Shown: positions 530 through 45,208 of the stretch, piece by piece | Position numbering within the stretch: the first letter of the stretch is position 1 | How the letters are laid out: every line of letters begins with the position of its first letter | NCBI GenBank assembly: GCA_964364175.1 | Contig: CAYILR010000002.1 | Span: 69,357-133,356 of the forward strand | DNA length: 64,000 bases | Direction: 5' to 3' | From: an uncultured Bacteriovoracaceae bacterium | GTDB taxonomy: Bacteria; Bdellovibrionota; UBA1018 | Notes under the pieces: model-generated | Told to the model about the DNA's origin: nothing | The model's database searches: none | What the model saw: only the letters and a program-made list of their open reading frames with translations | Position numbers and translations under genes: made by a program

Positions 530-558
530 TTGACATTTTTTTTTGACTTCAGTATGGT
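530..558 (+). promoter_or_regulatory. candidate sigma70-type promoter (TTGACA, 17-bp spacer, TATGGT)
   Basis: TTGACA at 530-535, then a 17-bp T-rich spacer and TATGGT at 553-558, directly upstream of ATG 567. The short distance to the ATG and the weak -10 keep confidence low. Confidence 0.25.
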
Positions 559-566
559 CGGTTGAA

Positions 567-1808
567 ATGGTTACCTTGGTTAAAAAAGCTCTAAGACGAG
601 TGCGTTACCGTTATCTACCTCGCGTTGCAGCAGCACTAATGTTTGTTCCCTTTCTTTTTTTGTTAGTCCCCGTGCTCTATGTATTCGAACTATTTAGACC
701 TGTTAGAATTGCAAACCTCGACAGCATGAGGGTGGGTCACTTTACAGGTCCGCTTGATATTTTTTTAAGAAAAATTGAACTAAAAAAAATCCGTAGCGAC
801 TGTTTTTACATTTTTACAAGCCCAAGGCCTGCTGCAAACCAAACAGTAATGAATCTATTCAAGAAAAAGCTGAATATTATTGAGAGTACATTTTTGTCTT
901 GGATTCACCAGACAATGCTTCCCTACTTACGTTACACTCGCTTTCATCATGACCTTTCATATGACTATTCCGCCTACGAAGTCTATGATAAGGGAACTGT
1001 GCCCGTAGCATTCAGTGACGAGGAAGAAAAACTGGGACAGCAAAAACTCAGGGAGATGGGCATTGGCCCCAATGATTGGTTTGTTTGTTTCCATGCTCGT
1101 GATGCTAACTATGTTTATAAATGGTTCAATCAGGCCGCTCATTCAGGGAAATATACGCAAGCTGATTTTGCATTTAGTGACTATAGAAATGAAAATATCC
1201 TCACTTATCTTAAAGCAATGAGGTACATTTCGAAGCAGGGTGGGTACGCTCTGAGAATGGGGGCAATAGTCGAAAAACCGCTTCCTCAGACCGGAGATCC
1301 GAAAATCATTGATTATGCCACACAGTGGCGCAGTGATTTTATGGACACGTACTTGTTGGCAAAATGTAAATTCCTACTCTTTGATTCAGCCGGACTTTAC
1401 ACAATATCTACTCTTTTTAACCGCCCAGTAGTGCTTGCAAATTATCTTTTGTCAAGTGTTCCAGTAGGCCTAAAAATTTTTTTCCAATATAAAAAATTTT
1501 GGGACAAAAAACAAAACGCTTACGTTTCATTTAATGAACTTCAAAGGCAAGGAGTGGCTAGTGGGATGAAGCATGGTGATTTTTTGAGGCACCTGATTAA
1601 AAATCGTGGAAAATTCATTAGTAATACTGATGACGAAATTCTTAATCTGGTCGTTGAATCCAACGAAATCTTAGATGGTGTGCGCACACCCAACGCTCCT
1701 GCACAAAAGGCAATACGTGGTTTTTATAATTCAGGTTACTCAAAATTCGATCAAATGGCGATCTTAAGTGGATTGTATTTTGAAAAAAATCGGGAGCTTT
1801 TCGAATAG
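567..1808 (+). CDS. hypothetical protein, possibly a glycosyltransferase-associated (GT-B-like) protein; the ATG at 567 is the more probable start than the TTG at 543
   Basis: Long ORF with no family I can recognise with certainty. It sits between a TPR protein and a GT-C-like membrane protein, and its moderately hydrophobic N-terminus suggests a membrane anchor. Confidence 0.35.
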   Translation: MVTLVKKALRRVRYRYLPRVAAALMFVPFLFLLVPVLYVFELFRPVRIANLDSMRVGHFTGPLDIFLRKIELKKIRSDCFYIFTSPRPAANQTVMNLFKKKLNIIESTFLSWIHQTMLPYLRYTRFHHDLSYDYSAYEVYDKGTVPVAFSDEEEKLGQQKLREMGIGPNDWFVCFHARDANYVYKWFNQAAHSGKYTQADFAFSDYRNENILTYLKAMRYISKQGGYALRMGAIVEKPLPQTGDPKIIDYATQWRSDFMDTYLLAKCKFLLFDSAGLYTISTLFNRPVVLANYLLSSVPVGLKIFFQYKKFWDKKQNAYVSFNELQRQGVASGMKHGDFLRHLIKNRGKFISNTDDEILNLVVESNEILDGVRTPNAPAQKAIRGFYNSGYSKFDQMAILSGLYFEKNRELFE

Positions 1809-1827
1809 CAGCTCCTTGGGATTTTTC

Positions 1828-3396
1828 ATGCTTATGAAGTCACAAAAATATTTACGCCCATTCTTGCTCTGTCTCTTTCCAATGTGTTTTTTGCTAGCTC
1901 TTCCTTCCATCATCAACTGGCGCGGTCCGTACTACCTGGGAGGAAATTCGGACCCGGATTACGCCTATCTTATGAATTCAATGGCGGTTCGCCATGGATT
2001 TCCACCCGGCCATTGGGATCACCCAGGGACCACAATACAAGGTCTGGGTGGAATCACGCTTCTGCTTGGACATTTGGGGAACTCAGCGGATCAAATTCTC
2101 GCCCAGGTTGTACACAATCCGGAAAAAATCATGCTCGAACTCGTTTGGACCCTTTCGGTCATATGTGCTGCCATCATTTTTGCTTCAGGATGGTTGATGA
2201 CGATCGCAACAGGCAACGTATCATTGGGGATTTTTTTTCAACTGGTCCCATTTTTAGTTCGGTCCACCTGGGTTCAGGTGGGGAGATTGACTCCAGAAAT
2301 TCTAACTCTATCGCTCACGATGCTCCTTGCTTCTCTCACTTTTCACAAGGTCTATAGTCGACGAGGCTGTTGGTACAATAGTCCCTATTTCCTGGGGGTC
2401 ATCACGGGACTCGTCCTAACCACCAAAATTACTGGCCTACCATTGATCATTTTGCCTCTTTATTTCATTCGCAATAATTTACGTGCCTTAATCAAATTCT
2501 CTGTCGGAGCCACACTCTGCGGGCTTTTAGTGATTCTCCCTGTCATCAACACAGCGATCAAAACTTTTGTTTATTATTTTGGGCACTGGATATTCACAAT
2601 TGGTACTCACCAGGGGAGTTATGGCGAGGGTAGCGGGATCAAGGCTTTGTCTCTGGAGACAGTCATTCGATCATTGGAAAGCCTTGCTATTTCTGCGCCC
2701 TTTTTAACCGGGACCCTTCTTTTTGGGATCATTTGGCTGATAGTTTTTCGTTATTCTAGGTCAGTTTTTTTAAAAATTCCTGAGAATAGACAACTGCTCA
2801 TTGCAACTGTTTTGGCTGGCGTTGGCCAGTTTTTGATGGTTTCCAAACAGCCCAACATCCGATACCTCATCCCTGGATTTGTGGCTCAAGGCCTCATCTT
2901 GGTGCTTGCTTTACGAACCTTTAAGAACACCTTTATTAGAGGCGGTTTGACTCTGACAGCATTTTTTCTAGCCATCTGGATACCCTTCGTAAGTCTCGGA
3001 GGAGCGGAAAATGAAAAATTACAACGTGATCAAGACCTGGCACTGATTGACTCCACTCTTAAATTCGCTGGATGTTTTGAAATTCCAACCTACCGCTCGA
3101 CTTCAGTGCCTTTTGCCCTGAGTTTTGGCAATAATTTTACAGGTCTGCGCTTTTCAAAAGCACTTGCAGAAGCCTACCCCGATTACCTCAGCTACAATCC
3201 AAGCGAAGGACTCCTCGATTTTGACAGAAGAGTTCTGAACCCAGAGAAAATAAAATCGTCAGGTCGAAAATTTTGTATACGGGGTTGGAAGTCAACCGTT
3301 CCCCCAAAATCCGTTTCAAATTTTATGACCTACCAAGAGATTCTCACTACTCAATCAGATGACTCTTTGTTTTTGGTTGAATGGAAATCAAACTAG
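1828..3396 (+). CDS. polytopic membrane protein, GT-C (ArnT/PMT, GT39/83)-like glycosyltransferase; start moved to ATG 1828 (the ORF track starts at GTG 1768, overlapping the upstream gene)
   Basis: Many predicted TM helices. Acidic loop 'GGNSDPDYAY' after TM1. Large size. Lies in a locus rich in polyprenyl-P-sugar synthases. Confidence 0.45.
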   Translation: MLMKSQKYLRPFLLCLFPMCFLLALPSIINWRGPYYLGGNSDPDYAYLMNSMAVRHGFPPGHWDHPGTTIQGLGGITLLLGHLGNSADQILAQVVHNPEKIMLELVWTLSVICAAIIFASGWLMTIATGNVSLGIFFQLVPFLVRSTWVQVGRLTPEILTLSLTMLLASLTFHKVYSRRGCWYNSPYFLGVITGLVLTTKITGLPLIILPLYFIRNNLRALIKFSVGATLCGLLVILPVINTAIKTFVYYFGHWIFTIGTHQGSYGEGSGIKALSLETVIRSLESLAISAPFLTGTLLFGIIWLIVFRYSRSVFLKIPENRQLLIATVLAGVGQFLMVSKQPNIRYLIPGFVAQGLILVLALRTFKNTFIRGGLTLTAFFLAIWIPFVSLGGAENEKLQRDQDLALIDSTLKFAGCFEIPTYRSTSVPFALSFGNNFTGLRFSKALAEAYPDYLSYNPSEGLLDFDRRVLNPEKIKSSGRKFCIRGWKSTVPPKSVSNFMTYQEILTTQSDDSLFLVEWKSN

Positions 3397-4794: not shown

Positions 4795-5924
4795 ACTTTG
4801 GACTCCCTAAACTCTTTCAATGCGCTCAAAATCCGACTTACATCGTCATTCGTCATTCTTTGGTGCAAAGGAATGTTTAATCCAGTCTCATTCAGCTTTT
4901 CCGAAACAGGAAGACGATCTGAGCTTCCATAAATCGCGTTCAAGTGCAGAGGATGATATCTCAAGCTCGTGTAGATTTTTTTCTCAAAAAGAAAGTGCGC
5001 TAGCTCGTCTCGGTTCCCTTTTTTCAAACGAATCAAATAAGTAAAGTACGAATGTTTTTCGTGAGACTCAGCTTCTGCCGGAATATCCAACCAAGTATTT
5101 GCCCAAGACTCGGTTCGGAAACACTTACTATATTGATTCCAAATTTCTTTACGTCTGGACTGGAACTGATCCAATTTTTTGAGCTGCTCAATTCCCATCG
5201 CAGCAGCCATGTCGGTGTTCAGCATTTTAGGGAAAAAATCGTGAATCTCATACTCCCACCAGCGATTTTTAGTGGTCGTAGACTCAAAACCTGATTTGGC
5301 GATTCCACAATATCTCAGCTTTCTTGCGTAATCGAGTTTGGATGTGTCTTGGGAAAGCAAACCTCCACCTTCACCCGTAGTAATATTTTTGACAGCATCA
5401 AAACTAAAAATCCCTAAACTCCCGATCGCACCACAATGCTTGCCTTTGTAATAAGAATCCACCGCATGTGCCGCGTCTTCGATCACTGGCAAATCCAAAT
5501 CCATAATAGGATCCATATCCACGGGTTTTCCGGCATAGTGGACCACCATAACGGCCTTGGTTTTTTTGGTGATTTTGGCTTCAACGGTCTCTCGAGTCAC
5601 ATTGGCTGTATCCAGATCCACATCGCAAAAAACAGGAACTAATCGATTGAGTTTAATGGCGTTGGCACAAGCGATCCAAGTAAATGAAGGTAGAATGACT
5701 TCGGATCCTTCGGGCAAATTCAAAAGTCGCACGGCAAGCTGCAATGCATTGGAACCGCTGTTTAAAAAAACAAAAGAAGGAATCCCTGTCTTGGAAGCAA
5801 TTTGTTTCTCAAACTCAGTTGTCTCTTTCCCGATTCCGACCCATTGCTTTTCAAAGGTTCGAGCAACCGCACCTACTTCTTCCTTGCCCACGGACGAACC
5901 AAACAAAGTGATCATGTCAGCCAT
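4791..5924 (-). CDS. DegT/DnrJ/EryC1/StrS-family PLP-dependent sugar aminotransferase
   Basis: Family-typical 'PVIEDAAHAVDSYYKGKHCGAIGSLGIFSFDAVKNITTGEGG' block. Resembles WecE/QdtB-type NDP-ketosugar transaminases. Confidence 0.85.
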   Translation of the reverse strand: MADMITLFGSSVGKEEVGAVARTFEKQWVGIGKETTEFEKQIASKTGIPSFVFLNSGSNALQLAVRLLNLPEGSEVILPSFTWIACANAIKLNRLVPVFCDVDLDTANVTRETVEAKITKKTKAVMVVHYAGKPVDMDPIMDLDLPVIEDAAHAVDSYYKGKHCGAIGSLGIFSFDAVKNITTGEGGGLLSQDTSKLDYARKLRYCGIAKSGFESTTTKNRWWEYEIHDFFPKMLNTDMAAAMGIEQLKKLDQFQSRRKEIWNQYSKCFRTESWANTWLDIPAEAESHEKHSYFTYLIRLKKGNRDELAHFLFEKKIYTSLRYHPLHLNAIYGSSDRLPVSEKLNETGLNIPLHQRMTNDDVSRILSALKEFRESKV

Positions 5925-5933
5925 GGAAAACAG

Positions 5934-6431
5934 CTATAGCTTAAGCGTCATTTCAAAAAAAGTTTTTTCTTCTCGAATGGTTATAAACCCCTGTCTGAGA
6001 TACCAGGCCACGCCACGCTGATTCGACTTCAAAACCTCGAGATGAATTTGTGAAATCCCTTTGGACTGAAGTGCCATTCGTGTGGAGTCAAAAAAGGTCT
6101 TCATTAATCCAGAACCTTGGTACTCTGGGGCACCGCAAATCAAATTGAAAAGCTCCACATCTCGCTGAGTCTTTCCATAACGATAGCCCACACACGCTAC
6201 AGGGCGTTCCTGCAAAAATAGGATATATATCTGACTGTTTTTATCTAAGACGAATTTTTCAAACCAAGCCTTCTGCTGTGAGGAAGAAATCACTTCCTGG
6301 TAATGGAATGAAAAGCGATTTTCGTTCTTCCAGTTTCTTAAATATTCCAACTCATTTTCGGTCGCTGGTTGAACACAGAACTCTTTTCCTTGAAATTCAA
6401 ATTCCTGTGTAAAATCTAAGCTCTTTGTCAT
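5934..6431 (-). CDS. GNAT-family N-acetyltransferase, likely amino-sugar N-acetyltransferase (WecD-like role)
   Basis: GNAT core motif 'LFNLICGAPEYQGSGLMKTF'. Lies immediately upstream of, and co-directional with, the DegT aminotransferase. Confidence 0.7.
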   Translation of the reverse strand: MTKSLDFTQEFEFQGKEFCVQPATENELEYLRNWKNENRFSFHYQEVISSSQQKAWFEKFVLDKNSQIYILFLQERPVACVGYRYGKTQRDVELFNLICGAPEYQGSGLMKTFFDSTRMALQSKGISQIHLEVLKSNQRGVAWYLRQGFITIREEKTFFEMTLKL

Positions 6432-6444
6432 ATGACCTCAGCCA

Positions 6445-8058
6445 ATGGCCATCCTGTGGAAGCGGATTCAGTTATTGGATAGGTATAAATTATCTTTATG
6501 GCTTTTACCCTTCCTATTTTCATTTATTTTCATTCGAATTTACAATTCTTGGGATGTTTTCCTTCTCCCGCACGAAGGTGATGATGGAGGCTATTTTGCT
6601 TACAGTACAGCCCTGCTCCAAACTCACCACTTGAATTGGTGCGCGCCCGAATTTGCAGACAATCCTGGCTTTGCTTCCACCTGTCAGCAACAGGGCAAGC
6701 CTTATAATAACTACTCACCAGGTCCTGCCATCACACTTTTGCCGTTTCAGATTTTTGGTGTTTTGTTGTCCAAATTTGGAATTTTTACACCTACTCAAAC
6801 CAGTCCCTTGATGTTCTGGTGGATTATTGGAAGTTTTTTCCTGCTTTTTTTCTCCGTTTTACTTCTTTTTGAAATAGCCAATTTGCTAGTTAAAAATCGT
6901 TCTTATGCGTTTTGGACCACGGTTTTTTTTTCTACCGGTAACATTGTTCTTTATTACGTTTACCGAAGACCACTGATGGCTCATTGCTCTGAGTTTTTTT
7001 TGTTTTTCTTATCCGTTTATCTATTACTCAAAAACAGGATGTTCGTTTTGGGTTTGTCGATCGGTCTTTTGATCATCACTCGATACAACAACGCTTATTT
7101 GGGATTGATGGCAGCAGCGTTGGTTTTTTTCGCTCAAACCTCGCCCCAGAAAAAAATTCAAAATCTTACTTTTCTCGCCCTGGGAGTTTTGCCTGCGATT
7201 TTTGTTTTTTTCCTCAACCAATATCTTCAAACGGGATCCCTGATTTATAAAACTACTCAATACGGACCCGAATTTTCACTATTGGGAATGTTAGCCTTGC
7301 GAGCTTCAAATATTCGAAGAATTTTTGATTTTTTTATGGGACCTCACTGGGGAGTGTTTTGGTTGATGCCATTTTTTTTCATCGAAGTTTGGATACTCGC
7401 TAGAATTGCAAAGAAAAGTTCTTCTCGAATCTGGAAAAACAAAACCACTCTGATTTCTCTGATTTTGATTAATTTTTTTTATTTAAACATGATTGCCAAC
7501 TTGCCTAATCACATGTCTTACGGATTCAGAATTCTCATTCCCACGTATTGTACGCTGCACCTGGCATTTCTTTGGGTGCTCTCGTTTCAATCACCTCAAG
7601 AAGCATTTCCGAAAAAATATATCTTTGCAGGATGTGTGACTGCAGTGCTTGCGATTTTCAATCTCAATAACTTCGAATCCAACTCAGATACATTGACCCT
7701 GACTCCTCACCCATCCATTGAGGCTGGGGTTTACCGACAAGAGTTCAGAGACCGTGTTGTAATCGATGCCCCCAACTATGCATTTCACTCACTCAAGCAT
7801 ACCATCACCGGAAAGGCTTTGACCTCACTCGCAGTCACTCCACTGGCTGCATATCCTCTGATGGCTGTTGCAGAAAACCCAAGGATTCAAGGAAATGCCC
7901 TGGCTTCAAAGACATTGGCTTACTATCAGTCACCCAAAAGAAAAATCGAGGATCTGAAAGATCTGACTCTTTTGTTTCAGTATCAAATTGTTTTTTTAGT
8001 TTTTCTAATTCTGGGTGGACTATTTCTTATTTTGTCCAAAATCATAATCAGAAAATGA
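6445..8058 (+). CDS. polytopic membrane protein, GT-C-like glycosyltransferase candidate
   Basis: More than 10 hydrophobic segments. Acidic loop 'LLPHEGDDGGYFAY' after TM1. 537 aa. Confidence 0.4.
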   Translation: MAILWKRIQLLDRYKLSLWLLPFLFSFIFIRIYNSWDVFLLPHEGDDGGYFAYSTALLQTHHLNWCAPEFADNPGFASTCQQQGKPYNNYSPGPAITLLPFQIFGVLLSKFGIFTPTQTSPLMFWWIIGSFFLLFFSVLLLFEIANLLVKNRSYAFWTTVFFSTGNIVLYYVYRRPLMAHCSEFFLFFLSVYLLLKNRMFVLGLSIGLLIITRYNNAYLGLMAAALVFFAQTSPQKKIQNLTFLALGVLPAIFVFFLNQYLQTGSLIYKTTQYGPEFSLLGMLALRASNIRRIFDFFMGPHWGVFWLMPFFFIEVWILARIAKKSSSRIWKNKTTLISLILINFFYLNMIANLPNHMSYGFRILIPTYCTLHLAFLWVLSFQSPQEAFPKKYIFAGCVTAVLAIFNLNNFESNSDTLTLTPHPSIEAGVYRQEFRDRVVIDAPNYAFHSLKHTITGKALTSLAVTPLAAYPLMAVAENPRIQGNALASKTLAYYQSPKRKIEDLKDLTLLFQYQIVFLVFLILGGLFLILSKIIIRK

Positions 8059-8469
8059 AACGGGCCAATCATCCGGCTCTTCGGGAGTCCATGCGGGTGA
8101 TGGCATGTTGAGAATGTAGGCATCATTGTTTCCAATATTCACTAGTGCCGAGGGAACATCCGCCGGAACTTGAATCGTGGCAAATCCATGGTCCTCACCA
8201 CTGAAATATTCTTGGTACTCATTATTCACGCGGGTAACAATTTTGATATTTCCTTTGATGCAGGTAAAAAGACCCCATCTTTTCTTATGTAAGTGTGGTC
8301 CTTTAATCTCTCCCGGTGTCGCCACTGTGCAATACACCTGCCAAGGCCACTGATCTTTTTCTGTGAAATTTTCATGCCGGTTGAAAACAGGAATCAAAAA
8401 ACCATTTGGCTTACCTTCAATGTTTTTTGTCACGATCTTAGGATTAGTTTTGGTTTTAATTCCAGCCAT
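8020..8469 (-). CDS. WxcM/FdtA-like cupin, putative NDP-4-keto-6-deoxy-sugar 3,4-ketoisomerase
   Basis: Small cupin carrying 'KGPHLHKK', matching the FdtA/WxcM 'RGxHxHK' motif. Last gene of a GT2-aminotransferase-GT2 operon on the minus strand. Confidence 0.55.
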   Translation of the reverse strand: MAGIKTKTNPKIVTKNIEGKPNGFLIPVFNRHENFTEKDQWPWQVYCTVATPGEIKGPHLHKKRWGLFTCIKGNIKIVTRVNNEYQEYFSGEDHGFATIQVPADVPSALVNIGNNDAYILNMPSPAWTPEEPDDWPVSFSDYDFGQNKK

Positions 8470-8476
8470 AAAAAAA

Positions 8477-9280
8477 CTACGTCAACCTTTCTGAAACATG
8501 AGGAGGATGGGCTGAATCATACTTGTCGGGCAGAGCCTTGAGAAATACTTCCGAAGGTGACGTCAATAGATTAAATCTTACCAAATGAAATAGTGCGGCT
8601 ATTCCATCTTTCCAATTAATTTTCTTACCCTGCAGCTTGGTTCGCGGATAGTAGTGAATGGGCAATTCAAAAATACGTGCTTTTGTTTTGGCTACATATG
8701 CTGTGAGTTCAATCTCAATCCCAAATCTTTTGGATCTAAGATTCATGGTCTTGATTAAATCCGATTTAAAAACCTTGTAGCAAGTCTCCATATCAGTCAG
8801 GTAAATCCCGGACAAAAGATTGCTGAGAAAAGTCAAAAATCGATTCACAAAATAATGATAAGTTCGATGCACCTGCATCACATTTTGTTTAAATCGACTT
8901 CCATAAACCACGTCTGCTCGATTGGATAAAATAGGTTCCAGCAATAAAGGAATATCCCTCGGATCATACTCAAAATCTGCGTCCTGGATAATAATGATGC
9001 TTCCCGAAGCTTGACTCACTCCTTTTGCAATTGCACTTCCTTTGCCCTGATTTCTCTCTTGCTCAAGAAGTATGAACCCATACTGCTGCTGCTTCGTTCG
9101 CAAAATTTCTCGCGAATTATCCGTGGAGCAATCATCAATAAAAATCCACTCGCGCTGAATCGGACAGGGCGCTTGCATCAAATAGTCGATAACCTCGGGT
9201 AAAACACTTTCTTCGTTGTACACAGGAACGATCACAGACAGTGTGTGCAAATCACCTGCTGTATTTTTACCAGACTCCAT
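8477..9280 (-). CDS. glycosyltransferase family 2 (DPM1/ArnC-like polyprenyl-phosphate sugar synthase type)
   Basis: 'LSVIVPVYNEE' N-terminal signature. 'DADFEYDP' and 'VVYGSRF' motifs typical of GT2 DPM1-like enzymes. Confidence 0.8.
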   Translation of the reverse strand: MESGKNTAGDLHTLSVIVPVYNEESVLPEVIDYLMQAPCPIQREWIFIDDCSTDNSREILRTKQQQYGFILLEQERNQGKGSAIAKGVSQASGSIIIIQDADFEYDPRDIPLLLEPILSNRADVVYGSRFKQNVMQVHRTYHYFVNRFLTFLSNLLSGIYLTDMETCYKVFKSDLIKTMNLRSKRFGIEIELTAYVAKTKARIFELPIHYYPRTKLQGKKINWKDGIAALFHLVRFNLLTSPSEVFLKALPDKYDSAHPPHVSERLT

Positions 9281-20078: not shown

Positions 20079-21062
20079 TCAGTAGTCGGCTATGGCCCGG
20101 TATCGATCCTTTACACAGTTCAAGTATTTTTTCTTAAGATCCTCATTTAAATAACTAGTATTAATGAGATCAAACACTTGGTCTTTAAGACTCATGGTTT
20201 TTCCTAAAAACGGCACTATTGCGATACTCGGCACTCCAACACGTCGACCAAGCTCAAAGAAATCATGCTGAGTATAAAAACCAAACTTTTCGTATTGAGG
20301 CGTGTTAGTGCCATCAATAAATAATTCTTGTAGTGCAAATTGCTGCTCTACTGGGTTGTAAATATTGGTGTTAACACTATCGTAGTTGGGTGAAAGATCC
20401 TGATATTTTCCGTCTTCTGTAAGTGCGACTAAACTAATATTTTTTAGATGATAATCACCATTTCCGATGAGGAAGTTGTAAATAAGTCTCTCTAGAAAAC
20501 GCAACAGAACAGCCTTTTTACCACCGCAAGCTTTAAGAATTGTATTCCCGACTTCTTCATAACTACCAGAATACTTGAAATTACCACCATCATCACGCTC
20601 TCTACCTAGTATTTGCGCAAGGTCTTCCTGATCAATCTTTTGTCCTTGAACGCGGTCAAAGCGCTTTACAATATATGCATTTTCCCCATTCTTAAAGGTA
20701 ATAAGACCAGACTCTGCCGTTTGGATTCCGAGAAGTTTTCCTATTTGCATCGAAAGATGTTCATTTTCGCTCAACTCTTCGTATTCCTGTGGGGTTGGTT
20801 TAAGGATGTATGTACCACCCACATCTGTCGGTACAATTTGTGTACCCTCAATCTTCACAGAAAGTTTTTGCTGCATTCCAGAAATCGACATTTTTTGTGT
20901 ATATTTCCGTGCCATTGTTGAACTAAACTCTTTTTTATCGAAAGAAAGAGTTGGGGAAATTTCGGACGATCCAAAAAGCGCAAGAATACATTTGTCGTGA
21001 TATCCTGCAAACTTAGTCTTTTGATTTATGAGCACTTGCCTTAAACAAATTTTGCAGATCAT
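20079..21062 (-). CDS. hipT: HipT-like serine/threonine kinase toxin (HipA C-terminal kinase core only)
   Basis: 'ISGMQQKLSV' matches the HipA 'AGxQxK' loop. 'FLIGNGDYHLKNISL' matches the HipA catalytic motif 'GNxDxHxKN'. Low GC relative to flanks. 4-bp overlap with the upstream small gene. Confidence 0.7.
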   Translation of the reverse strand: MICKICLRQVLINQKTKFAGYHDKCILALFGSSEISPTLSFDKKEFSSTMARKYTQKMSISGMQQKLSVKIEGTQIVPTDVGGTYILKPTPQEYEELSENEHLSMQIGKLLGIQTAESGLITFKNGENAYIVKRFDRVQGQKIDQEDLAQILGRERDDGGNFKYSGSYEEVGNTILKACGGKKAVLLRFLERLIYNFLIGNGDYHLKNISLVALTEDGKYQDLSPNYDSVNTNIYNPVEQQFALQELFIDGTNTPQYEKFGFYTQHDFFELGRRVGVPSIAIVPFLGKTMSLKDQVFDLINTSYLNEDLKKKYLNCVKDRYRAIADY

Positions 21063-21391
21063 ATTTTATTTTCTGGATCAGCCAACACAGAAACCGCTCC
21101 AACCAGATCCTGTCCATTATTTATTAAAAGTGAAAAAAAATCACGCTCATCAATTTTCTGAATTCTCGACTGCTGGTGCTTGAGCCAACCCTCAGCAATT
21201 AATCCATCAAAAAATGGAAAAAGCCGCTCAGAAAAAAATGGTTCGACCTGCAAGGGAAACGAAATGCTGATTGGATGTGCTTCACTAGACGCCAAATAAT
21301 CAGCATTATAGCGAAACTCATAAGACGATTCGCCATGTTTCACCAATTCACCAGCCACCGCATTATTGTGTAAAACTTTTGCTCTCATCAT
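21059..21391 (-). CDS. hipS: HipS-like small protein (homolog of the HipA N-terminal subdomain)
   Basis: 110 aa, 'LHNNAVAGELVKHGESSYEFRYNADY' resembles the HipA N-terminal (couple_hipA) domain. Sandwiched between hipB and hipT with 4-bp overlaps, which is the HipBST order. Confidence 0.6.
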   Translation of the reverse strand: MMRAKVLHNNAVAGELVKHGESSYEFRYNADYLASSEAHPISISFPLQVEPFFSERLFPFFDGLIAEGWLKHQQSRIQKIDERDFFSLLINNGQDLVGAVSVLADPENKI

Positions 21392-21696
21392 TTAATCCAG
21401 AATGATTTTCCTAGTGCGGACAACACCTTCTCAACATTTTCAAAAGACACTCTTCGATTTCCTGCTTCAAGTTTTGCAATCGTCAAAGTACTCAGGCCAG
21501 TTAACGCGGCAAGTTGTTTTTGGCTGAGGCTTTGGTCTGCGCGAGCAATTTTGATGGCTTTTCCTAAGTTACTAGTAGGTTCAAAACTGCTTTTGTTCAC
21601 CATCGATATTTGAGTGTTTTGCTGCTTTATAGCTTGGTCTAGTTGCTTAAGCAGATCATTAAGATTTATCTGTTTATTTTTTTCCATAGTTTCCAT
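21388..21696 (-). CDS. hipB: HipB-like XRE-family HTH protein
   Basis: 'LSQKQLAALTGLSTLTIAKLEAGNRRVSFENVEKVLSALG' is a classic HTH_XRE. First gene of the three-gene module. Confidence 0.7.
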   Translation of the reverse strand: METMEKNKQINLNDLLKQLDQAIKQQNTQISMVNKSSFEPTSNLGKAIKIARADQSLSQKQLAALTGLSTLTIAKLEAGNRRVSFENVEKVLSALGKSFWIK

Positions 21697-21699
21697 CAG

Positions 21700-21840
21700 T
21701 TAAACCTATATGCCTATTTAAAATCAGGCATCACACTAGTCAACTCTAATACAATTAACCATTAGTATACTATGAAATAGATTTAAAATCTTTCCATACT
21801 AAAAGATGGAAAAACAACCTTTTAGTATGTATACTGTTAT
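21700..21840. promoter_or_regulatory. AT-rich promoter/operator region upstream of hipB with several palindromes
   Basis: ATGCCT-N10-AGGCAT at 21709-21730 overlaps a candidate -10 (TAAATA on the minus strand). On the minus strand, TTGACT (21738-21743) lies 17 bp upstream of that -10. TAGTATACTA is a perfect palindrome at 21764-21773. CATACTAAAAG...CTTTTAGTATG (21795-21829) and AGTATGTATACT (21824-21835) share the AGTAT/ATACT half-site. Confidence 0.4.
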
Positions 21841-21906
21841 TAAAGTTAGTATTTTACAAATAAAAATATAGATTCTGTTTCAGGCTTTCTAGGGGACGTA
21901 GGCAGT

Positions 21907-27596: not shown

Positions 27597-29030
27597 GTGA
27601 CCTCTTTAAAGAATTCCTTCTGGGTAAAAACAGCTTGGTTCACACTACTAGCCTATTTCATAGGTCTTGCGGGAGGTTCTAAGGAATTTTCCTATTTTCA
27701 TTTCAAAATTGGCCCCATTCCTGTTTTTATTGGTGAACTTGCCCTTTTTCTGTCACTGGTTTTGACCTGGGTACATCGCGACACAGTTTTGTCGAAAATC
27801 CCCAAGGCATTTCGATATGCTCTCTTGGTCTATCTTGGCTGGGGAGCGGTCCTACTTCCTATCTCAATTTTAAAGAAAGACGCTGAAATTGAGATGGTTC
27901 AAATTTTAAGAGATTCTGCTCTTTTCTATCAAGCTTTATGGATTTTGTTCGGACTCATGCTCACTCAGACACGATGGAAAACTTGGCTCACTGCCTGCCT
28001 CATCGGTGTTGGAGCTGCTCAATTCATTGGTTGGTCTCACTATGCTTTTTATGGATTAGTCTATCGAATGAGCATGTCTGGCTTTTTTGGATTTATTTAT
28101 GGAAATGAGTCGTTCAGCTACCTTTTTCCTTTCACGATTGTTCTCTGGCCAACGATTTGGGCTCTATTGCTCACCTTTGCTTACGGTGATGCGATTTTGG
28201 GGCTTTTTATTATTTATTTTAAAAAAACCTGGATTTTAAACATTCTGGCGATTGCTGTCCCTGCAACAATCTGGACCACCTACAAAAAATTTGGACTCAA
28301 ACTTGGGGTCAAAAAAATATCTGCTCTGGCTACTTCTCTCACCATTGGACTAGTTTTGGCTGGCTACGTTGCTCAAAACGTTGCGATACTTGACTATCAA
28401 CGCCAGAAGGAAGACGTAGAACAATGGCTTTACGAAAAGGCCCAAAGGCACGGGGCTAAAAGGCCTTATCTGGAAGGAAAAAGCGAATTAACAAAACCCA
28501 TGTCGATCATGGAGCAAATTCGCACCAGAACTAAAGATCCCACCTCATTTTTCTTTCATGGAGAGGTCGACGAAAAAGAAAAAGTACACCCATTTGTGGC
28601 TTATGTGGCTTGGAGAGCCTTTCTGTGGAAACAAGCCTGGCAAGGTTTTTTAGCACACCCTTTTCTGGGAAATGGCTATGGCCCCAGAGTAGTTCACACG
28701 CAACTCAACGGCCTACCGACAGTATGGGAGGGCAAATGGATATCTGGACCTCATAATAGCTTTCTCACCGTTGCATTTCGCGGTGGGATCATCGCGATCA
28801 TCAGCTTGTTTGTGCTTTTGTTCTCAGCCATTTGGGAATGGATCAAAACTCTGAAACTATCTCGCTCTCTTCCATTGGAATCTAACCTGGCATTGGCAGC
28901 CTTACTGATTCAGGTCGTTTCTATTTTATTCAATGTGGTTCTTGAAAATCCACAGAATGGTACTCTCTTCTGGGTATTGTTGGGATCCCTCATTCGACTC
29001 ACACATCCACCCGACCATGAAGTTATCTAG
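27597..29030 (+). CDS. O-antigen ligase / Wzy_C-domain membrane protein (paralog of 62625..63941)
   Basis: 'ISGPHNSFLTVAFRGGIIAI' motif. About 50% positional identity along its length to the ORF at 62625..63941. Confidence 0.6.
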   Translation: MTSLKNSFWVKTAWFTLLAYFIGLAGGSKEFSYFHFKIGPIPVFIGELALFLSLVLTWVHRDTVLSKIPKAFRYALLVYLGWGAVLLPISILKKDAEIEMVQILRDSALFYQALWILFGLMLTQTRWKTWLTACLIGVGAAQFIGWSHYAFYGLVYRMSMSGFFGFIYGNESFSYLFPFTIVLWPTIWALLLTFAYGDAILGLFIIYFKKTWILNILAIAVPATIWTTYKKFGLKLGVKKISALATSLTIGLVLAGYVAQNVAILDYQRQKEDVEQWLYEKAQRHGAKRPYLEGKSELTKPMSIMEQIRTRTKDPTSFFFHGEVDEKEKVHPFVAYVAWRAFLWKQAWQGFLAHPFLGNGYGPRVVHTQLNGLPTVWEGKWISGPHNSFLTVAFRGGIIAIISLFVLLFSAIWEWIKTLKLSRSLPLESNLALAALLIQVVSILFNVVLENPQNGTLFWVLLGSLIRLTHPPDHEVI

Positions 29031-30390
29031 GGCACTTCTCTATTTCTCTCCTCTGTTTGTGGTGCTTTTCATGATTCTGTACAAACAGCCTTATTTTGGA
29101 TTGATGGACGACGCTTCTATGCTCAACGGGTATCTGAATGATCCTGTAAGTCTTGTAGCACTACCGCAGCAAGCATGGTCTCAGGCTGTCATCGATCTCC
29201 ATGGAGGGTTTTTTCGCCTACTCTATCCTTTCATGACCTGGATCCTCTATTCTCATTCGCCTGATCATCCTGGCGTCCTTTTCGCATTGAATTTTTTTTT
29301 GGTTGTGTTCTCCTCCTTACTTTTTTTAGCTTCACTCATCACCGCAACGAGTTCAAAAAACGATCCTCTTTTTTTTGAAAAACTAGGACTTTCGTTGCTC
29401 ATCACCTACTCAATTCCATGGATGTACGATTTGTTCATCCATCCCTCTCTTCAAGAAAAACTGATTCTTTCAACCGCGGCAATTTGTTTTTTTTGGTTTT
29501 CGAGGCGATTGCCTAGAGCTTCGCTAGTTGAAGTATTCCTTGCAATTCCAATATTTTTTGCTCTAGGTGCCTGCTCCAAATCGCAGTTTGTCATTTTTTT
29601 CCCAGCTTTTTTGATTCTAGCTTGGGTTAAAAAAAATGTTTTTTTGAATTCTAAAATAGTTTTGCTCTATTCGCTTTTCTGGGCAGGACTCCTGACTATG
29701 GGACTGGTTTGGATTGGGCAAAAAGGCTCTTATACTGGGGGAATTCGATTTTCTATTTCAGATTTTTTTCACAACAAAACCAAAATTTTGCTCTTAGCAG
29801 TCGCGATTTTTGGATGCATTTTGCTTTATTTAGATTGGATCAAAGCAAAAGATATCTCTAGGATACTACATCGATCCTTACCGGTTGTCCTCATTTTTTC
29901 GTATCTCGCCGTTTTCTTCAGCTGGAATCTTGTTGGCTATTTAATTTCCCTGATTGCACCTGTCGTTGGAGTTTTAGTTGCTCACTGGATTTTTCAGTGG
30001 GCGAAAAAATACAAAACAGTATTTGTTATTCTTTTTTTGATTTCATCTTTCGGCATTTCAACGTGGCGGTCAGATCTCTATTTTCAAAAATTGGCTGATA
30101 TTCGAAATCTGATCCTGGATCCCACTTTTTCAAAAATTCTGAAAGATACCCCCCCCCTGTATATCAATTGTATGGAGGGTGTCTTTTCGTTCAAATTCTT
30201 CACTACTCGACTTTTAGGCCAGACTCTACATATGGAGGAACTCAATACTAGAAAAGAGAAAATGTTTTTCGTCATCCATGAATCAAAGCTGTGTCCAGCT
30301 CCCCAGTATATTGCCCTTGCTCCGAAAAAAATAATCCTATCGCCAAGCGGCAGCAAGAGTTTTGAACTATGGCAAGTCGAATTGCCTTAG
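29017..30390 (+). CDS. polytopic membrane protein, GT-C-like candidate; start moved to MKLSRALL (29017, 14-bp overlap with the upstream gene)
   Basis: Many TM segments. Acidic loop 'GLMDDASMLNGY' after TM1. Confidence 0.4.
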   Translation: MKLSRALLYFSPLFVVLFMILYKQPYFGLMDDASMLNGYLNDPVSLVALPQQAWSQAVIDLHGGFFRLLYPFMTWILYSHSPDHPGVLFALNFFLVVFSSLLFLASLITATSSKNDPLFFEKLGLSLLITYSIPWMYDLFIHPSLQEKLILSTAAICFFWFSRRLPRASLVEVFLAIPIFFALGACSKSQFVIFFPAFLILAWVKKNVFLNSKIVLLYSLFWAGLLTMGLVWIGQKGSYTGGIRFSISDFFHNKTKILLLAVAIFGCILLYLDWIKAKDISRILHRSLPVVLIFSYLAVFFSWNLVGYLISLIAPVVGVLVAHWIFQWAKKYKTVFVILFLISSFGISTWRSDLYFQKLADIRNLILDPTFSKILKDTPPLYINCMEGVFSFKFFTTRLLGQTLHMEELNTRKEKMFFVIHESKLCPAPQYIALAPKKIILSPSGSKSFELWQVELP

Positions 30391-31598
30391 AGCCTGTTTG
30401 GAAAGGGGGGTTCCGTCATGCAGGAAACAAATTTACCCAGATCTTTGACATCCAAATCTTGAAATGCTGTCTTCACTGTAGGTTCTAAATTTTCTTTGAA
30501 ATAACGACCCGCTTCACCCACTGAAGTAATCCATGCACCTTCCTTCTGGGCTAAATCCAAAAGGAACTCATAAGCTTTCAGGTACATTTCAGCATACTCT
30601 GGATCAACAGCTGCAATCGTGTTGGGGTGCCACAACACAGTCATGACTCCTCCGACGTTTGCCACTCGCTGCATGATTTGCCCGATCAATTCTTTTGCGG
30701 CAGTAAGCCCTAATCCCATGGCAGAAAGGTGCCTAAACATCGACACATCCTGAATAATCAGCGGCAATTCTAGAGTAGTTGAATCTTGAAAATAAAATGG
30801 AAAAGATGTCCCCGCCCTAAATCCAACCTGTTTATTAAATCCATACGTGGAATCAAACGAAAACCCTGCTCGACTGTGAATTTGAGGCGTTGTCATGGGG
30901 TCGAACATCAAAAAATGCTGCCTGACGGATTGAATGGGCTGCGGCAGAATCTTGTCGATCATTTTTTTTTGCTGCTCAAGTAGCGCGAGATTTTTATGAG
31001 TTTGTATCGCAGGATGGAGGCCAACCTCCCAGCCTCTCTGATTCAGCTGACGCATCAGGTCTGTCACCTGGATCTTCTCGCCATCAAACTGCAAATAGTC
31101 CTCCAGCAAATACGCACAATCCTCAATCTCTTGAAGTTCGAGCGGCACTGGGGTTGAGAAAAAAAACGTGGATTTAGCTCGATATCGATCCTCAATCTCT
31201 AGCCATTTTTCAAAACAATGGTAGGGATCGGTTCGCGATAGTACCTTGTTTTTCGCTCCTCTCCCCCACTGAAGACAAGAACGGATCAAAGCGACGACTC
31301 CGGCCTTTTTCAAACCTCTGGCCTGACTTAAAGACCTTTTGATCATATTCAATTTTTCGGACAGGCTGTAATAGCCAATGTTGTCTACATCATGGCTGAG
31401 TGCTAGGCAGAATCGCTTGCCTTGTGGCCACTGAACGGATGGGATCAATCCGTTTTTCTTGAGGTATGCATCAAAATAAGGGAAAAGCGTCAGGTGATAC
31501 GCTGAAGCTCTATGGTTATAACAGTCCAGCGTGCCCCACTCTGTTTTGAAAGAATGGTCTTCGAGTGATCGAAAATCAAACATGCCCATTTTAATCAC
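30387..31598 (-). CDS. putative polysaccharide deacetylase-like (CE4-like) protein; low confidence
   Basis: 'LALSHDVDNIGY', later 'GLHPAIQTH', and a soluble ~400-aa size. Family assignment is tentative. Confidence 0.3.
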   Translation of the reverse strand: MIKMGMFDFRSLEDHSFKTEWGTLDCYNHRASAYHLTLFPYFDAYLKKNGLIPSVQWPQGKRFCLALSHDVDNIGYYSLSEKLNMIKRSLSQARGLKKAGVVALIRSCLQWGRGAKNKVLSRTDPYHCFEKWLEIEDRYRAKSTFFFSTPVPLELQEIEDCAYLLEDYLQFDGEKIQVTDLMRQLNQRGWEVGLHPAIQTHKNLALLEQQKKMIDKILPQPIQSVRQHFLMFDPMTTPQIHSRAGFSFDSTYGFNKQVGFRAGTSFPFYFQDSTTLELPLIIQDVSMFRHLSAMGLGLTAAKELIGQIMQRVANVGGVMTVLWHPNTIAAVDPEYAEMYLKAYEFLLDLAQKEGAWITSVGEAGRYFKENLEPTVKTAFQDLDVKDLGKFVSCMTEPPFPNRL

Positions 31599-31662
31599 AT
31601 TTATAGTTGCGATTTACAATAGACTTCCGACCAATAAGGATTTCTATTACCATGAGTAGCGC

Positions 31663-32784
31663 ATGAACTCACTCAAACTAGCTGTTTTTACTCCAGTCTA
31701 TCCTAGCCCTGAACGTCCCAAGGGAAATATTTTTGTTAAAAGTCGTGTCGATGAATATGCCAAAAAAGGGTACCATATTACTGCGTTTGGCTATGGCCCT
31801 CAAAACCGAAGTTTTCAAATGGATGGCATTCAGGTTTACGAGGGCTCATGGGATTATGTTTCCACGCAATTGGATCAATACCCGTTTGATCGTTTTTTAG
31901 TTCATCTGATTGACCGTCGGGTAGCTCTTTATATCTTAAAAAACCGATGTTTCCACAAATGCATCCTTTGGATTCATGGCTTTGAGGCGCTGGGATGGTA
32001 TCGTGATGTCCTTCATTGGAAGTTCAGTTTTTCGTTCTTTAAGCAGCGACTCATTCGTGCATTCAGAAACATGCTCGAACTGGCGACTTTCAGGTACTTG
32101 ATTTTTCGATCACAAGGGCAGATCAAATATATTTTTGTCTCAAAATGGATGAGACAGATGGCTCAAATCGATTTGCTGTATCCGTTTTCTGATTACAAAA
32201 TCATTCCTAATCCTATTGATACACGGTTTTTTGATTATCAAATAAAACCGGCTGAACAAAGACTGAAGATCTTGTTTATCCGTGCTTATAATCATCCTAA
32301 ATATGCTGCTGATCTTGCGCTTCAAAGTATTTTAGAATTCTCTAAGCATCCGTTTTTTTCAAAATTTGAGTTTTTTATTGCGGGCGGAGAATGTCATCAG
32401 CTGGTTTCAAGCTTGGAGTCTTTTCCGAACGTCACTATCCGAAATGGTTTTTTAAACCACGACGAAATGAAAGCACTTTGTCATCAGTATGGGGTTTACC
32501 TTTGCCCCAGTCGGCAGGATGCCCAAGGCGTGTCCATGTGCGAGGCGATGTCCTGCGGTATGTTGGTCATTGGCTCTCAAACAACCGCTATCCCAGAATT
32601 CGTAAAGCACATGGAAACAGGTATATTGACTCGCTCTGTCCAAGATATTGTGCAAGCGTATATTCAACTGTATGAAAAACCAGATCAGTTCCAAAAATTT
32701 TCTGAATCCGCTGCAAAATGGATTCGTGAAAACATCGATATGCCAAAATTAATTCAACAAGAATTGGATGAGATCATAAAATAA
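31663..32784 (+). CDS. glycosyltransferase family 4 (GT-B)
   Basis: C-terminal 'CEAMSCGMLVIGSQTTAIPEFVKHMETGIL' is a GT4 signature. Confidence 0.8.
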   Translation: MNSLKLAVFTPVYPSPERPKGNIFVKSRVDEYAKKGYHITAFGYGPQNRSFQMDGIQVYEGSWDYVSTQLDQYPFDRFLVHLIDRRVALYILKNRCFHKCILWIHGFEALGWYRDVLHWKFSFSFFKQRLIRAFRNMLELATFRYLIFRSQGQIKYIFVSKWMRQMAQIDLLYPFSDYKIIPNPIDTRFFDYQIKPAEQRLKILFIRAYNHPKYAADLALQSILEFSKHPFFSKFEFFIAGGECHQLVSSLESFPNVTIRNGFLNHDEMKALCHQYGVYLCPSRQDAQGVSMCEAMSCGMLVIGSQTTAIPEFVKHMETGILTRSVQDIVQAYIQLYEKPDQFQKFSESAAKWIRENIDMPKLIQQELDEIIK

Positions 32785-32785
32785 A

Positions 32786-33904
32786 ATGAATACTTTCTAC
32801 TCTCGAATCATTGCTACTTGTATTTTAGTCTTTGCAAAATTGGGTTTGAGATCTCGATTTTTGCACGTTCTTTTATATGGCAGCGATGCTCGCAACCTTT
32901 GTCTTGCTAGAGGGGCCTATATTTTATGTGATCAGCTGACAGTTCAAGGCATGGTTCAAGTGGGAGCCCACTCGAAAATCATTGGTCAAACAGTGACTCT
33001 CGGCAAAGCCATCCGGATTGATCAACGAGTCACGATTCGCGCTAAACGAATTGCACTGGGCAATCAAGTCATCATCGAGAGTGACAATCAATTTGAAGGA
33101 ATGCAGCTTCAAACCTCAGCCCTGGAGCTTGGGAATGAAGTCTGGATTTTTCAACAATGTTACCTGAACACATCGGCAGGATTGTATATTGGAGATGGAA
33201 CTGGTGTAGGTGGATTTTCGATGATTTGGACTCACGGATCCTGGCAGTCTTATGTCGAAGGTTATTCGGTTTCTCATGCTCCTACGTACATCGGAAAAAA
33301 TGTTTGGATCCCTTGGCATGTCATCATTCTTCCAGGAGTGAAAATTGGAGACAATGCTACTATATGGGGAGGCTCTGTTATTTCAACTGACATTCCGGAC
33401 AATTCATTGGCAGTTGGAACTCCTGGAGCGCCTCTCAAGGTTTTTAAATCTGGAACAGCTGAGTGGCCAAGAACCTTGGATGCGAACGAATCTCTCAAGC
33501 GCCTGCGAACTATTATGGATGAATTTAGCGCCTGGGTGGGAGGAGAATTTGATTCAAAACGGCTCACGATTTTTGGAAATACAAAAAAATCCATCCGTTT
33601 AATGAGTCAATCACAAGATCAATACTCCTTTGAATCGGGAGCAGGTGAGATTTTTCAAATCTTACTTTCCAGCAAAGCCAGCCCCATGGGAAAAGTAGAT
33701 CTGCATGAAAAAAATTCGATTCGCCTTTGGGTGGCTTTAGACACCGAAATTCCCACTGAGGCAGCAAACTGGATTAACCTCAAAACAAAAACGATATCCA
33801 CTGAACAGTCACACGTATTATTTGACAGGCTTGTTTCGTTTATGACTTTTTATGGTGTTCGATTGCGCGATGCCAAAACAGGATTACTCTGTTTTTTTGG
33901 CTAG
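32786..33904 (+). CDS. hexapeptide-repeat (LbH) acyl/acetyltransferase with an ~150-aa C-terminal extension
   Basis: Repeats 'VWIPWHVIILPGVKIGDNATIWGGSVIS' and 'AVGTPGAPLKV'. The C-terminal 150 aa are unassigned. Confidence 0.6.
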   Translation: MNTFYSRIIATCILVFAKLGLRSRFLHVLLYGSDARNLCLARGAYILCDQLTVQGMVQVGAHSKIIGQTVTLGKAIRIDQRVTIRAKRIALGNQVIIESDNQFEGMQLQTSALELGNEVWIFQQCYLNTSAGLYIGDGTGVGGFSMIWTHGSWQSYVEGYSVSHAPTYIGKNVWIPWHVIILPGVKIGDNATIWGGSVISTDIPDNSLAVGTPGAPLKVFKSGTAEWPRTLDANESLKRLRTIMDEFSAWVGGEFDSKRLTIFGNTKKSIRLMSQSQDQYSFESGAGEIFQILLSSKASPMGKVDLHEKNSIRLWVALDTEIPTEAANWINLKTKTISTEQSHVLFDRLVSFMTFYGVRLRDAKTGLLCFFG

Positions 33905-43112: not shown

Positions 43113-43154
43113 TTACGTTACCGAACTTGCTTCTCTCCCAAAATCTCCGCTAAC

Positions 43155-43805
43155 TCAACTGATGTTCACATTTCCGAACAACTCATGGGAAATAATGATC
43201 GGAGAATTTGTGGGTCGATATTCCTCCGTACAACTTGACGCATTCACATATTGAGTTTTGCCCAAGGTCACCTGACCATATCCATGATGGAGATGCCCGA
43301 AAACATGGATGTGAGGTTGAATTTTTTGAACTACTTTAAGCAATTCCTCGCACCCACAATGTTCACTAGTAATGACAAAATCTAAAATTCCATGCGGCGG
43401 ACCATGAGTCACGAGAATATCTACCTGTTCGGGAATTTGCCCCCATTTTTTTGCGATCGCCTTGCCTCGATCGACATTAAAAGCCCAATTACAAAATGTG
43501 GGCTGCCAAGGTGAGCCAAAGATCCGAGTAGATTGAATCGTGATTTCCTGATCGATCAAAACTGTCACATCAAGTCCCATGATTTCGCGTGCAAGCGTTT
43601 CCTGCTCCTCAAAAAGCCAGTCGTGGTTACCGGGAACAAAAACCTTGTGTGGATGTGGCAAGGCGCGAAACTCTTTAGAAAATGTAATGACTTCCTGGAG
43701 AGTACCCATACTTGTTGCATCACCAGCATGAATCAAGAGATCCCCCTCTGGGATTTTCATTTTGGAGAGCTGGTTGTGAGTATCTGAAATACAAATGATT
43801 TTCAT
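43155..43805 (-). CDS. calcineurin-like metallophosphoesterase
   Basis: 'ISDTHN', 'GDLLIHAGD', 'VPGNHD' and 'THGPPHG' motifs. Coding sequence is AT-rich relative to the locus. Confidence 0.8.
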   Translation of the reverse strand: MKIICISDTHNQLSKMKIPEGDLLIHAGDATSMGTLQEVITFSKEFRALPHPHKVFVPGNHDWLFEEQETLAREIMGLDVTVLIDQEITIQSTRIFGSPWQPTFCNWAFNVDRGKAIAKKWGQIPEQVDILVTHGPPHGILDFVITSEHCGCEELLKVVQKIQPHIHVFGHLHHGYGQVTLGKTQYVNASSCTEEYRPTNSPIIISHELFGNVNIS

Positions 43806-44779: not shown

Positions 44780-44971
44780 TTGAGCAGTATAGAGGGTTTT
44801 TTCTGTGTTGGAATGGATTTTCAGAAGTCTGAACAGACAGCAAAACTGGCCGCAGAAATCAAAATCAAAGAAATTCTCTTTTTGGATTATTTACGTGAGA
44901 TTGATCGACGCGAGTTGTACAAAATTCGCACTTCAGGACGTAGCTATATTCTCAATCGGTCCAGAAGCAAC

Positions 44972-45208
44972 TCAGCTCAACCCACGCTCCGACAAAACAC
45001 CGTAGATGGCTTTAACGCTGTCCATTTTCATGATCTCTTCGACTTGAAACTCGACGGTGAACTCGGTCTGAAGAGCGTTCACCAAATTCAGATGCCCGAG
45101 TGAATCCCAGCCCGCGACATGTTCGGGCAAAACGTCATCGTTGTACTCAAACTTGGCTTCGGGGAACGCGGTCTCGAATGCTTTTTTTACTTTCTCGTTC
45201 ATTGCCAT
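44972..45208 (-). CDS. acyl carrier protein (phosphopantetheine-binding, DltC-like)
   Basis: 78 aa with 'AGWDSLGHLNLVNALQTEF', an ACP serine attachment motif. Confidence 0.75.
   Translation of the reverse strand: MAMNEKVKKAFETAFPEAKFEYNDDVLPEHVAGWDSLGHLNLVNALQTEFTVEFQVEEIMKMDSVKAIYGVLSERGLS

Follow-up and report, generated by a model that had tools for sequence, protein, structure and literature searches.

The stretch of DNA analysed here (the window) comprises 64,000 nucleotides (nt) from an uncultured Bacteriovoracaceae bacterium, and three adjoining genes on its minus strand very probably form a functional three-gene operon of the HipBST type, a type II toxin-antitoxin system, an assignment that we base on comparison of sequence and predicted fold. 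The first gene, hipB (21388..21696), encodes an XRE-type helix-turn-helix (HTH) protein of 102 amino acids (aa) that is predicted to be an autorepressor. It is followed by hipS (21059..21391), which encodes a 110-aa (or 109-aa) homologue of HipA N-subdomain 1 and predicted direct antitoxin, and by hipT (20079..21062), whose open reading frame (ORF) and homology predict a HipA_C Ser/Thr kinase toxin of 327 aa. As judged from its domain content, HipT is a complete HipA-family Ser/Thr kinase core minus N-subdomain 1, and HipS is the missing subdomain as a separate protein. The cassette belongs to the already described HipBST family, and it broadens the known range of that family, not the concept.

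A sequence-only reading of this DNA had described three minus-strand ORFs of 327, 110 and 102 aa with 4-bp overlaps, and the coordinates and lengths are exactly as claimed there. Both gene junctions are ATGA, such that the stop and start codons overlap by 4 bp, and the three genes are predicted to be translationally coupled. An alternative hipS start, chosen by two gene callers, lies one codon later and gives the 109-aa form with a 1-nt overlap. There is no sign of decay in any of the three genes, and the same neighbours are present in every assembly that carries the exact HipT, all of which come from Hainich groundwater (Hain_H52; ERZ1292616/18, ERR3858110/1).

The start of hipT differs between gene calls. 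The deposited ENA/NCBI call for this metagenome-assembled genome (P0001, L003, L004) begins the toxin at Met50 (ATG at 20913-20915) and gives a protein of 278 aa, which would drop a conserved minidomain and leave a gap of 143 nt behind hipS. We favour the 327-aa form because its N-terminus is conserved in homologues, its 4-bp overlap is typical of the family, and its structural model is confident; the Met50-start annotation is probably too short. The Logan gene call agrees with the 327-aa protein.

The nearest homologues of HipT are only ~50% identical to it. A search of 1.84 billion representatives at E ≤ 1e-30 gives 161 clusters (50% identity) for the family, and 303 loci with HipT relatives are present in one-genome-per-species data; the taxonomy given here is that of the best 80 of these 303 loci, and the layout counts refer to 81 related loci. 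The best 80 loci fall in at least eight phyla, and their members include Bdellovibrionota, Lentisphaerota, Verrucomicrobiota, Desulfobacterota, Gammaproteobacteria, Spirochaetota and Bacteroidota, among others. This range, to which plasmids are to be added, differs from that of the published HipT sets (40-48 sequences), which are mostly gammaproteobacterial (PMC6581861). Full-length relatives of HipT (31-38% identity) occur on 41 plasmid records, and the plasmid copies examined, from Arcobacter and Legionella adelaidensis, show the three-gene arrangement as well. None of 50,697 phage records contains a HipT relative. The nearest named relatives of both HipT and the product of the adjacent methyltransferase gene are from Bacteriovoracaceae or Bacteriovoracia, although such affinities are an unreliable guide to the host where genes move horizontally.

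The HTH-HipS-HipT order, with overlaps or tiny gaps between the genes, is found in 60 of the 81 related loci, so that the tripartite organization proposed by the earlier reading recurs well beyond this genome; HipS lies upstream of HipT in 71 of the 81. Two loci have HipS and HipT in a single ORF of ~431 aa (L007, 3427-4722; L075, 1610-2908). The L007 fusion was rejected as an artefact, since it results from a frameshift near the HipS C-terminus at ~2.6x coverage and the sister locus L006 is split, while in L075 the two parts may truly have fused again into a HipA-like protein. Residence in a glycan locus was also considered as a family trait and rejected, with any probe hit in only five of the 81 loci and two or more hits in one. 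The nearest homologue (P0002; JGI 3300050046, 49% identity) does sit among sugar-modifying genes, including those for a family 2 glycosyltransferase (GT2), epimerases and thiamine pyrophosphate (TPP) enzymes.

The predicted toxin, antitoxin and DNA-binding partner

The HipA_C domain of Pfam matches HipT strongly over residues 58-262 (143.5 bits against a cut-off of 30.5; E 9e-42), a match that the earlier reading had set as a test for 20079..21062. No Couple_hipA domain is found by Pfam within the 327-aa protein. Among all PDB sequences, the best relative is the HipT of Legionella pneumophila, HipT(Lp) (8EZR/7VKB/7WCF; E ~1e-31), and the second is that of Escherichia coli O127 (7AB3-5; E ~3e-28), which aligns over residues 3-320; HipA proteins are much weaker matches (Shewanella, 3e-9; E. 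coli, 2e-3). The fold predicted by AlphaFold2 from an alignment of 37 homologues has a predicted local distance difference test score (pLDDT) of 92.7 and a predicted template modelling score (pTM) of 0.92, and drops below a pLDDT of 50 only at residues 57-61, which form the mobile Gly-rich loop. When this model is compared with the PDB by Foldseek, HipT structures rank first, with template modelling (TM) scores of 0.83-0.87 over the full length, and HipA (0.60-0.68) and CtkA rank behind them. Thus, by both sequence and predicted fold the toxin is of the HipT type and not a canonical HipA, in line with the earlier reading.

The residues expected of an active kinase of this type are all in place. 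Both motifs quoted in the sequence-only reading are found, ISGMQQKLSV at residues 60-69 and GNGDYHLKN at residues 200-208, and the segments S59-I-S-G-M-Q-Q-K66, G200-N-G-D203-Y-H205-L-K-N208 and Y227-D228 align with the E. coli O127 motifs. The Gly-rich loop is S59-I60-S61-G62, in which S59-I60-S61 corresponds to S57-I58-S59 of E. coli O127 HipT. In the same numbering, R134 and R137 of the RxDR motif (R134-x-D136-R137) are equivalent to R137 and R140, the catalytic pair D203/H205 to D210/H212, and the Mg-binding D228 to D233; K207 and N208 are also in place, and the activation-loop region is collinear with the HipT structures in the alignment. Nine of these residues (G62, Q64, K66, R134, D136, D203, H205, K207 and N208) are invariant in all 79 relatives compared, D228 is present in 78, and the SIS loop in 72. 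Its S59-I60-S61 places HipT in the S-psi-S group, and autophosphorylation is predicted. Mutation of D133, R134, E144, R154, K157 or K201 in Legionella HipT abolishes or weakens HipS binding (PMC9325769), and all six contact residues are kept here in the sequence alignment, as D136, R137, E146, R156, K163 and K207.

HipS is identified by two domain models, Couple_hipA of Pfam (80.4 bits, cut-off 22.5; E 1.4e-22) and TIGR03071 (couple_hipA) of NCBIfam (86 bits, cut-off 27.8; E 1.5e-24), and it also aligns to residues 8-108 of full-length HipA (E 6e-12). The resemblance of the 110-aa ORF to the HipA N-terminal subdomain, likewise named as a test beforehand, is therefore supported from both sides. 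The top solved match is Haemophilus influenzae HipS (HI_0666, 7CZO; E 3e-22), with a similarity that includes the PEGWLKH segment, followed by HipS of E. coli O127 (7ab3_B; 1e-17) and HipS(Lp) (5e-12). HipS ends where HipS O127 does, the alignment extending to residues 4-100 of 103. In the E. coli O127 complex, Glu63 and Trp65 of HipS are inserted in the active site, with the Trp wedged beside the ejected Gly-rich loop (PMC10627512); the equivalent residues here are E67 and W69, and the EGW triplet to which they belong is present in 58 of 72 family members.

HipB gives a clear HTH_3 match (Pfam; 45.3 bits, cut-off 23; E 9e-12), which bears out its description as an XRE HTH protein. The HTH occupies approximately residues 43-98, behind an N-terminal extension of ~40 aa, and the protein ends in ...LGKSFWIK. 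Similarity to the solved HipB structures is marginal (E 0.013-0.064; 0.064 for HipB(Lp), 8ezt). HipB has its N-terminal extension, as well as a C-terminal LG..LWI[KG] motif, in common with the first-gene products of the related loci.

Of the known systems, HipBST of E. coli O127:H6 (7AB3/7AB4/7AB5; PMC6581861, PMC10627512) has the same hipB-hipS-hipT order with overlapping genes. Its HipT is likewise a kinase core with an N-terminal minidomain (aligned over residues 3-320, TM 0.87), its HipB also has an N-terminal extension before the HTH, and the SIS loop, the RxDR motif, the catalytic D/H pair, the Mg-binding D and the Glu/Trp pair of HipS are held in common; identity between the two HipTs is, however, only ~25%. 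The HipBST of L. pneumophila (Lpg2368-2370; 7VKB, 7WCF, 8EZR) also has 4-bp overlaps at both junctions. Its HipT is the best sequence match (E 1e-31, 28-32% identity) and shares the six HipS-binding residues, but its loop is S-V-Q with one phosphosite, rather than S-I-S, and its HipB is a short protein of 72-76 aa without the N-extension. Canonical HipBA (E. coli K-12; 3DNT, 3TPD, 2WIU) has the same kinase superfamily and chemistry and also an HTH partner encoded first. In that system, however, a single polypeptide, HipA, carries both N-subdomain 1 and the kinase and has no N-terminal minidomain; its antitoxin is HipB, and it targets GltX. The difference from two-gene hipBA that the earlier reading had pointed out holds, as several independent contigs encode N-subdomain 1 and the kinase in two separate ORFs that overlap in different frames.

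A Cys/His quartet in the HipT minidomain

The N-terminal minidomain of HipT (approximately residues 1-50) contains C3, C6, H22 and C25, a quartet encoded at 20988-21056 on the minus strand. Of the 79 relatives, 42 have CCHC at these positions and 10 have CCCC. In the remaining relatives two or more of the four ligands are gone together, and none of the 79 keeps exactly three. Structural zinc sites typically show interchange of His and Cys and are lost as a whole, and from this pattern of conservation the quartet is likely to be one. In the HipT model, C3 and C6 lie on either side of a short beta element, and a helix (residues 23-30) has H22 and C25 at its start; this modelled arrangement appears treble-clef-like.

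In a neighbour-joining tree of the kinase core only, the quartet states follow the clades. CCHC is found in the clade of this HipT and in a Marinobacter/Kangiella clade, and CCCC in Bacteroidota and Arcobacter; a Desulfobacterota/Oceanospirillales clade has lost the ligands. Independent losses are seen in the Legionella type (MKHCPITY...YSQRG, an N-terminus taken from the L. adelaidensis homologue) and in E. coli O127 (CRILL...YSTQG), where three of the four positions are lost and CLSG stands in place of the CCHC seen here. A tentative account of this distribution, which we regard as possible though doubtful, is that the ancestral minidomain bound zinc as a small treble-clef-like module, with a C-x2-C knuckle and with H/C-x2-C where a helix begins, and that E. 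coli O127 and the Legionella type lost the ligands independently. The E. coli structure paper describes the minidomain as 'of unknown significance'. The three HipBST structure papers make no mention of zinc or of cysteines in the minidomain, and a text search for HipT and zinc returned nothing relevant.

Upstream region, flanking genes and origin

An AT-rich spacer of 210 nt (21697..21906, minus strand; GC content 0.35-0.36) separates the stop codon of a wbpB-like gene from hipB, and is taken here as the promoter/operator region. It contains a perfect 11-nt inverted repeat, CATACTAAAAG-N13-CTTTTAGTATG (21795..21829, minus strand; arms at 21819-21829 and 21795-21805), which is a candidate HipB operator; the probability of an arm of at least 11 nt is 0.008 in 1000 dinucleotide-preserving shuffles. 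A perfect 10-bp palindrome, TAGTATACTA (21763..21772), is a candidate second operator. It has the TAGTAT/ATACTA half-site in common with the large inverted repeat, and lies 20 nt upstream of a putative -35 element. The sequence TAGTATAC occurs once in the 64 kb, at this palindrome, where 0.15 occurrences are expected, and the spacer holds four of the eight TACTAA/TTAGTA hexamers of the window. A tentative sigma-70-like promoter, TTGACT-N17-TAAATA (21715..21743, minus strand), was located by inspection, and ends 19 nt before the hipB ATG. In E. coli, HipB represses the hipBST promoter, and by analogy the inverted repeats upstream of hipB are likely to be HipB operators. A scan for perfect inverted repeats upstream of the relatives gave p ≤ 0.05 in 8 of 58 loci, weakly above expectation. 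No terminator is predicted between the wbpA/wbpB-like genes and the module, which is co-oriented with these upstream genes, and read-through into the module is therefore possible.

The module differs in composition from its surroundings, as the sequence-only reading had noted in calling it AT-richer than its flanks. Its coding GC is 0.385, compared with 0.4525 for the window, and ranks among the lowest 0.8% of segments of equal size; the minimum for the whole window (0.369) also lies inside the module. GC at third codon positions is 0.33-0.35 in the three genes and 0.42-0.54 in the neighbouring genes. The low-GC block extends from ~20047 to ~21880-21906, and so consists of the module and its upstream spacer and nothing else. 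Its composition suggests a fairly recent acquisition.

One flank is occupied by a class I S-adenosylmethionine (SAM) methyltransferase gene (Pfam), and the other by genes for a GFO/IDH/MocA oxidoreductase and a nucleotide-sugar dehydrogenase (TIGR03026, 429 bits). The methyltransferase named in the earlier reading is thus present, and the wbpB/wbpA designation is plausible at the family level, but no equivalog model scores above its cut-off. A class I SAM methyltransferase gene also follows the plasmid-borne hipBST of L. adelaidensis (L090). Two relatives on long contigs (P0113 and P0184) show no synteny with this locus. From its low-GC composition, patchy taxonomy and plasmid carriage, the module was most likely acquired horizontally.

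Elsewhere in the window there are other low-GC patches (GC ≤ 0.41), at approximately 1-2100, 5600-9000, 28650-31000, 31200-33200 and 43150-45200, and the window is therefore compositionally mosaic. No tRNA, tmRNA or Rfam family match was found in the 64 kb. For seven large ORFs of 325-545 aa, located in the regions 543-3396, 6445-8058, 43802-44779, 49194-50657, 55079-56716 and 59702-61240 of this glycan-rich window, Pfam gives no match at E ≤ 1e-5. There is also a second Wzy_C O-antigen ligase/polymerase gene (62625-63941), together with genes for a PMT-like glycosyltransferase (52066-53880) and an AMP-binding enzyme (40647-42158), so that the window seems to hold more than one surface-polysaccharide cluster.

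Competing explanations and meaning

Several observations weigh against the reading of this locus as a horizontally acquired, functional HipBST operon. The TIGR03070 (couple_hipB) model matches HipB with E 1.6e-13, but its 50.4 bits are below the cut-off of 71.65, and phmmer (E ≤ 0.1) detects no significant similarity between HipB and HipB O127. The consensus promoter scan did not report TTGACT-N17-TAAATA, whose -10 element is weak. No empty site was recovered among the methyltransferase homologues, the best non-self one being 66% identical, and there are no meaningful direct repeats flanking the module and no adjacent integrase or transposase. Of the horizontal insertion proposed in the sequence-only reading, the support from composition, taxonomy and plasmids stands, while the marks of insertion at the site itself were not found. 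HipT also has D147 and K207, as in Legionella, compared with Q151 and R214 in E. coli. Finally, Legionella HipT acts through neither TrpS nor GltX (bioRxiv 10.1101/2022.11.26.518041).

With regard to D147 and K207, the Legionella residues at these positions, again D and K, touch the second loop residue. The residues at the equivalent positions are the proposed holders of the second phosphoserine. E. coli O127 HipT is the sole member with Gln/Arg there in the tree (79 relatives), the Legionella type and others having Asp/Lys, and this best-studied model looks atypical for the family.

Among the alternatives, a mainly abortive-infection role has the most to be said for it, although we consider it unlikely. 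Here, phage infection would release HipT and shut down translation, and the placement of the module among surface-glycan genes, which are a common phage-receptor determinant, would not be accidental. A role against phages has been put forward for some families of Hip kinases (Gerdes et al. 2021; PMC8262856), and the sugar-modifying surroundings of the nearest homologue, P0002, could be read in the same way. The PADLOC family PDC-M03 gives weak, partial matches, of HipT to PDC-M03A (E 5e-8) and of HipS to PDC-M03B (E 5e-4), but the scores are low (30.7 and 17.6 bits, respectively) and would indicate shared superfamily domains, not membership of that family. In addition, the glycan context is not a family trait (any probe hit in 5 of 81 loci, two or more in 1), no other defence genes were identified adjoining the module, and the absence of HipT relatives from the 50,697 phage records is neutral at best.

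It is quite improbable that the locus is a domesticated or attenuated remnant, with an intact kinase that is non-toxic because it is held off or retargeted, and that now serves as a regulator or is carried as neutral cargo. Chromosomal toxin-antitoxin modules are often without phenotype, and HipB is divergent from the characterized HipBs; against this, all of the catalytic, regulatory and antitoxin-interface residues are retained, the three ORFs are full length and coupled, and the composition is that of a fairly recent arrival. That a canonical hipBA was broken by a frameshift, pseudogene formation or an assembly error is effectively refuted, for although HipS and HipT jointly resemble full-length HipA, and such indels do occur (e.g., the frameshift-made L007 fusion at ~2.6x coverage), the same split with its 4-bp overlap is present in independent contigs from several samples and recurs in 71 of 81 relatives, HipS terminates where HipS O127 does, and HipT is far nearer to HipT than to HipA and has a conserved minidomain of its own (~50 aa, modelled at pLDDT 85-97) that HipA lacks.

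For a functional HipBST operon, the known structures suggest how the parts would work together. HipS would bind the N-lobe of HipT with Trp69 and Glu67 wedged beside the Gly-rich loop, so that the loop would be ejected and the kinase inactive, and Ser59 and Ser61 would be autophosphorylation sites that tune both activity and HipS binding. HipB dimers would bridge two HipS-HipT units, and would repress the operon at the TAGTAT-type inverted repeats. Upon loss of HipS or HipB, free HipT would phosphorylate an essential translation factor and growth would stop.

By analogy with characterized Hip kinases, the target of HipT is likely to be an aminoacyl-tRNA synthetase. TrpS may be offered as the single best guess, with a roughly even chance of being right: the HipTs of E. 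coli, H. influenzae and T. auensis act through TrpS, and in H. influenzae overproduction of TrpS rescues the toxicity of the cognate HipT (PMC6581861). The E. coli and Legionella systems do not share a target, so that TrpS does not carry over to this locus by homology; HipT is about equally distant from the HipTs of both and has mixed affinities, in that the SIS loop is E. coli-like, D147/K207 is Legionella-like, and HipS is nearest to that of H. influenzae.

In the Legionella study, HipBST was found in accessory gene clusters and a stabilizing role was suggested (bioRxiv 10.1101/2022.11.26.518041). The cassette described here, inside a glycan locus, fits the idea derived from that work that HipBST stabilizes plastic accessory regions, and it may be a selfish or stabilizing element in a variable glycan-biosynthesis locus. 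The routine gain is one of annotation: a correctly typed HipBST in an uncultured groundwater bacterium, in which the deposited toxin call is 49 residues short.

Beyond annotation, the locus offers only the putative metal site, which would belong to the family as a whole and not to this locus in particular. This HipT represents the majority form of the quartet, and both structurally studied HipTs are without it, so that the quartet gives a concrete hypothesis for the HipT domain that has no assigned role. If the minidomain is indeed a zinc-binding module, metal or redox state could act through the site on the release of the kinase or on its recognition of the target. The model systems would then be atypical of the family, and in its non-proteobacterial host this module could differ in regulation from textbook HipBST.

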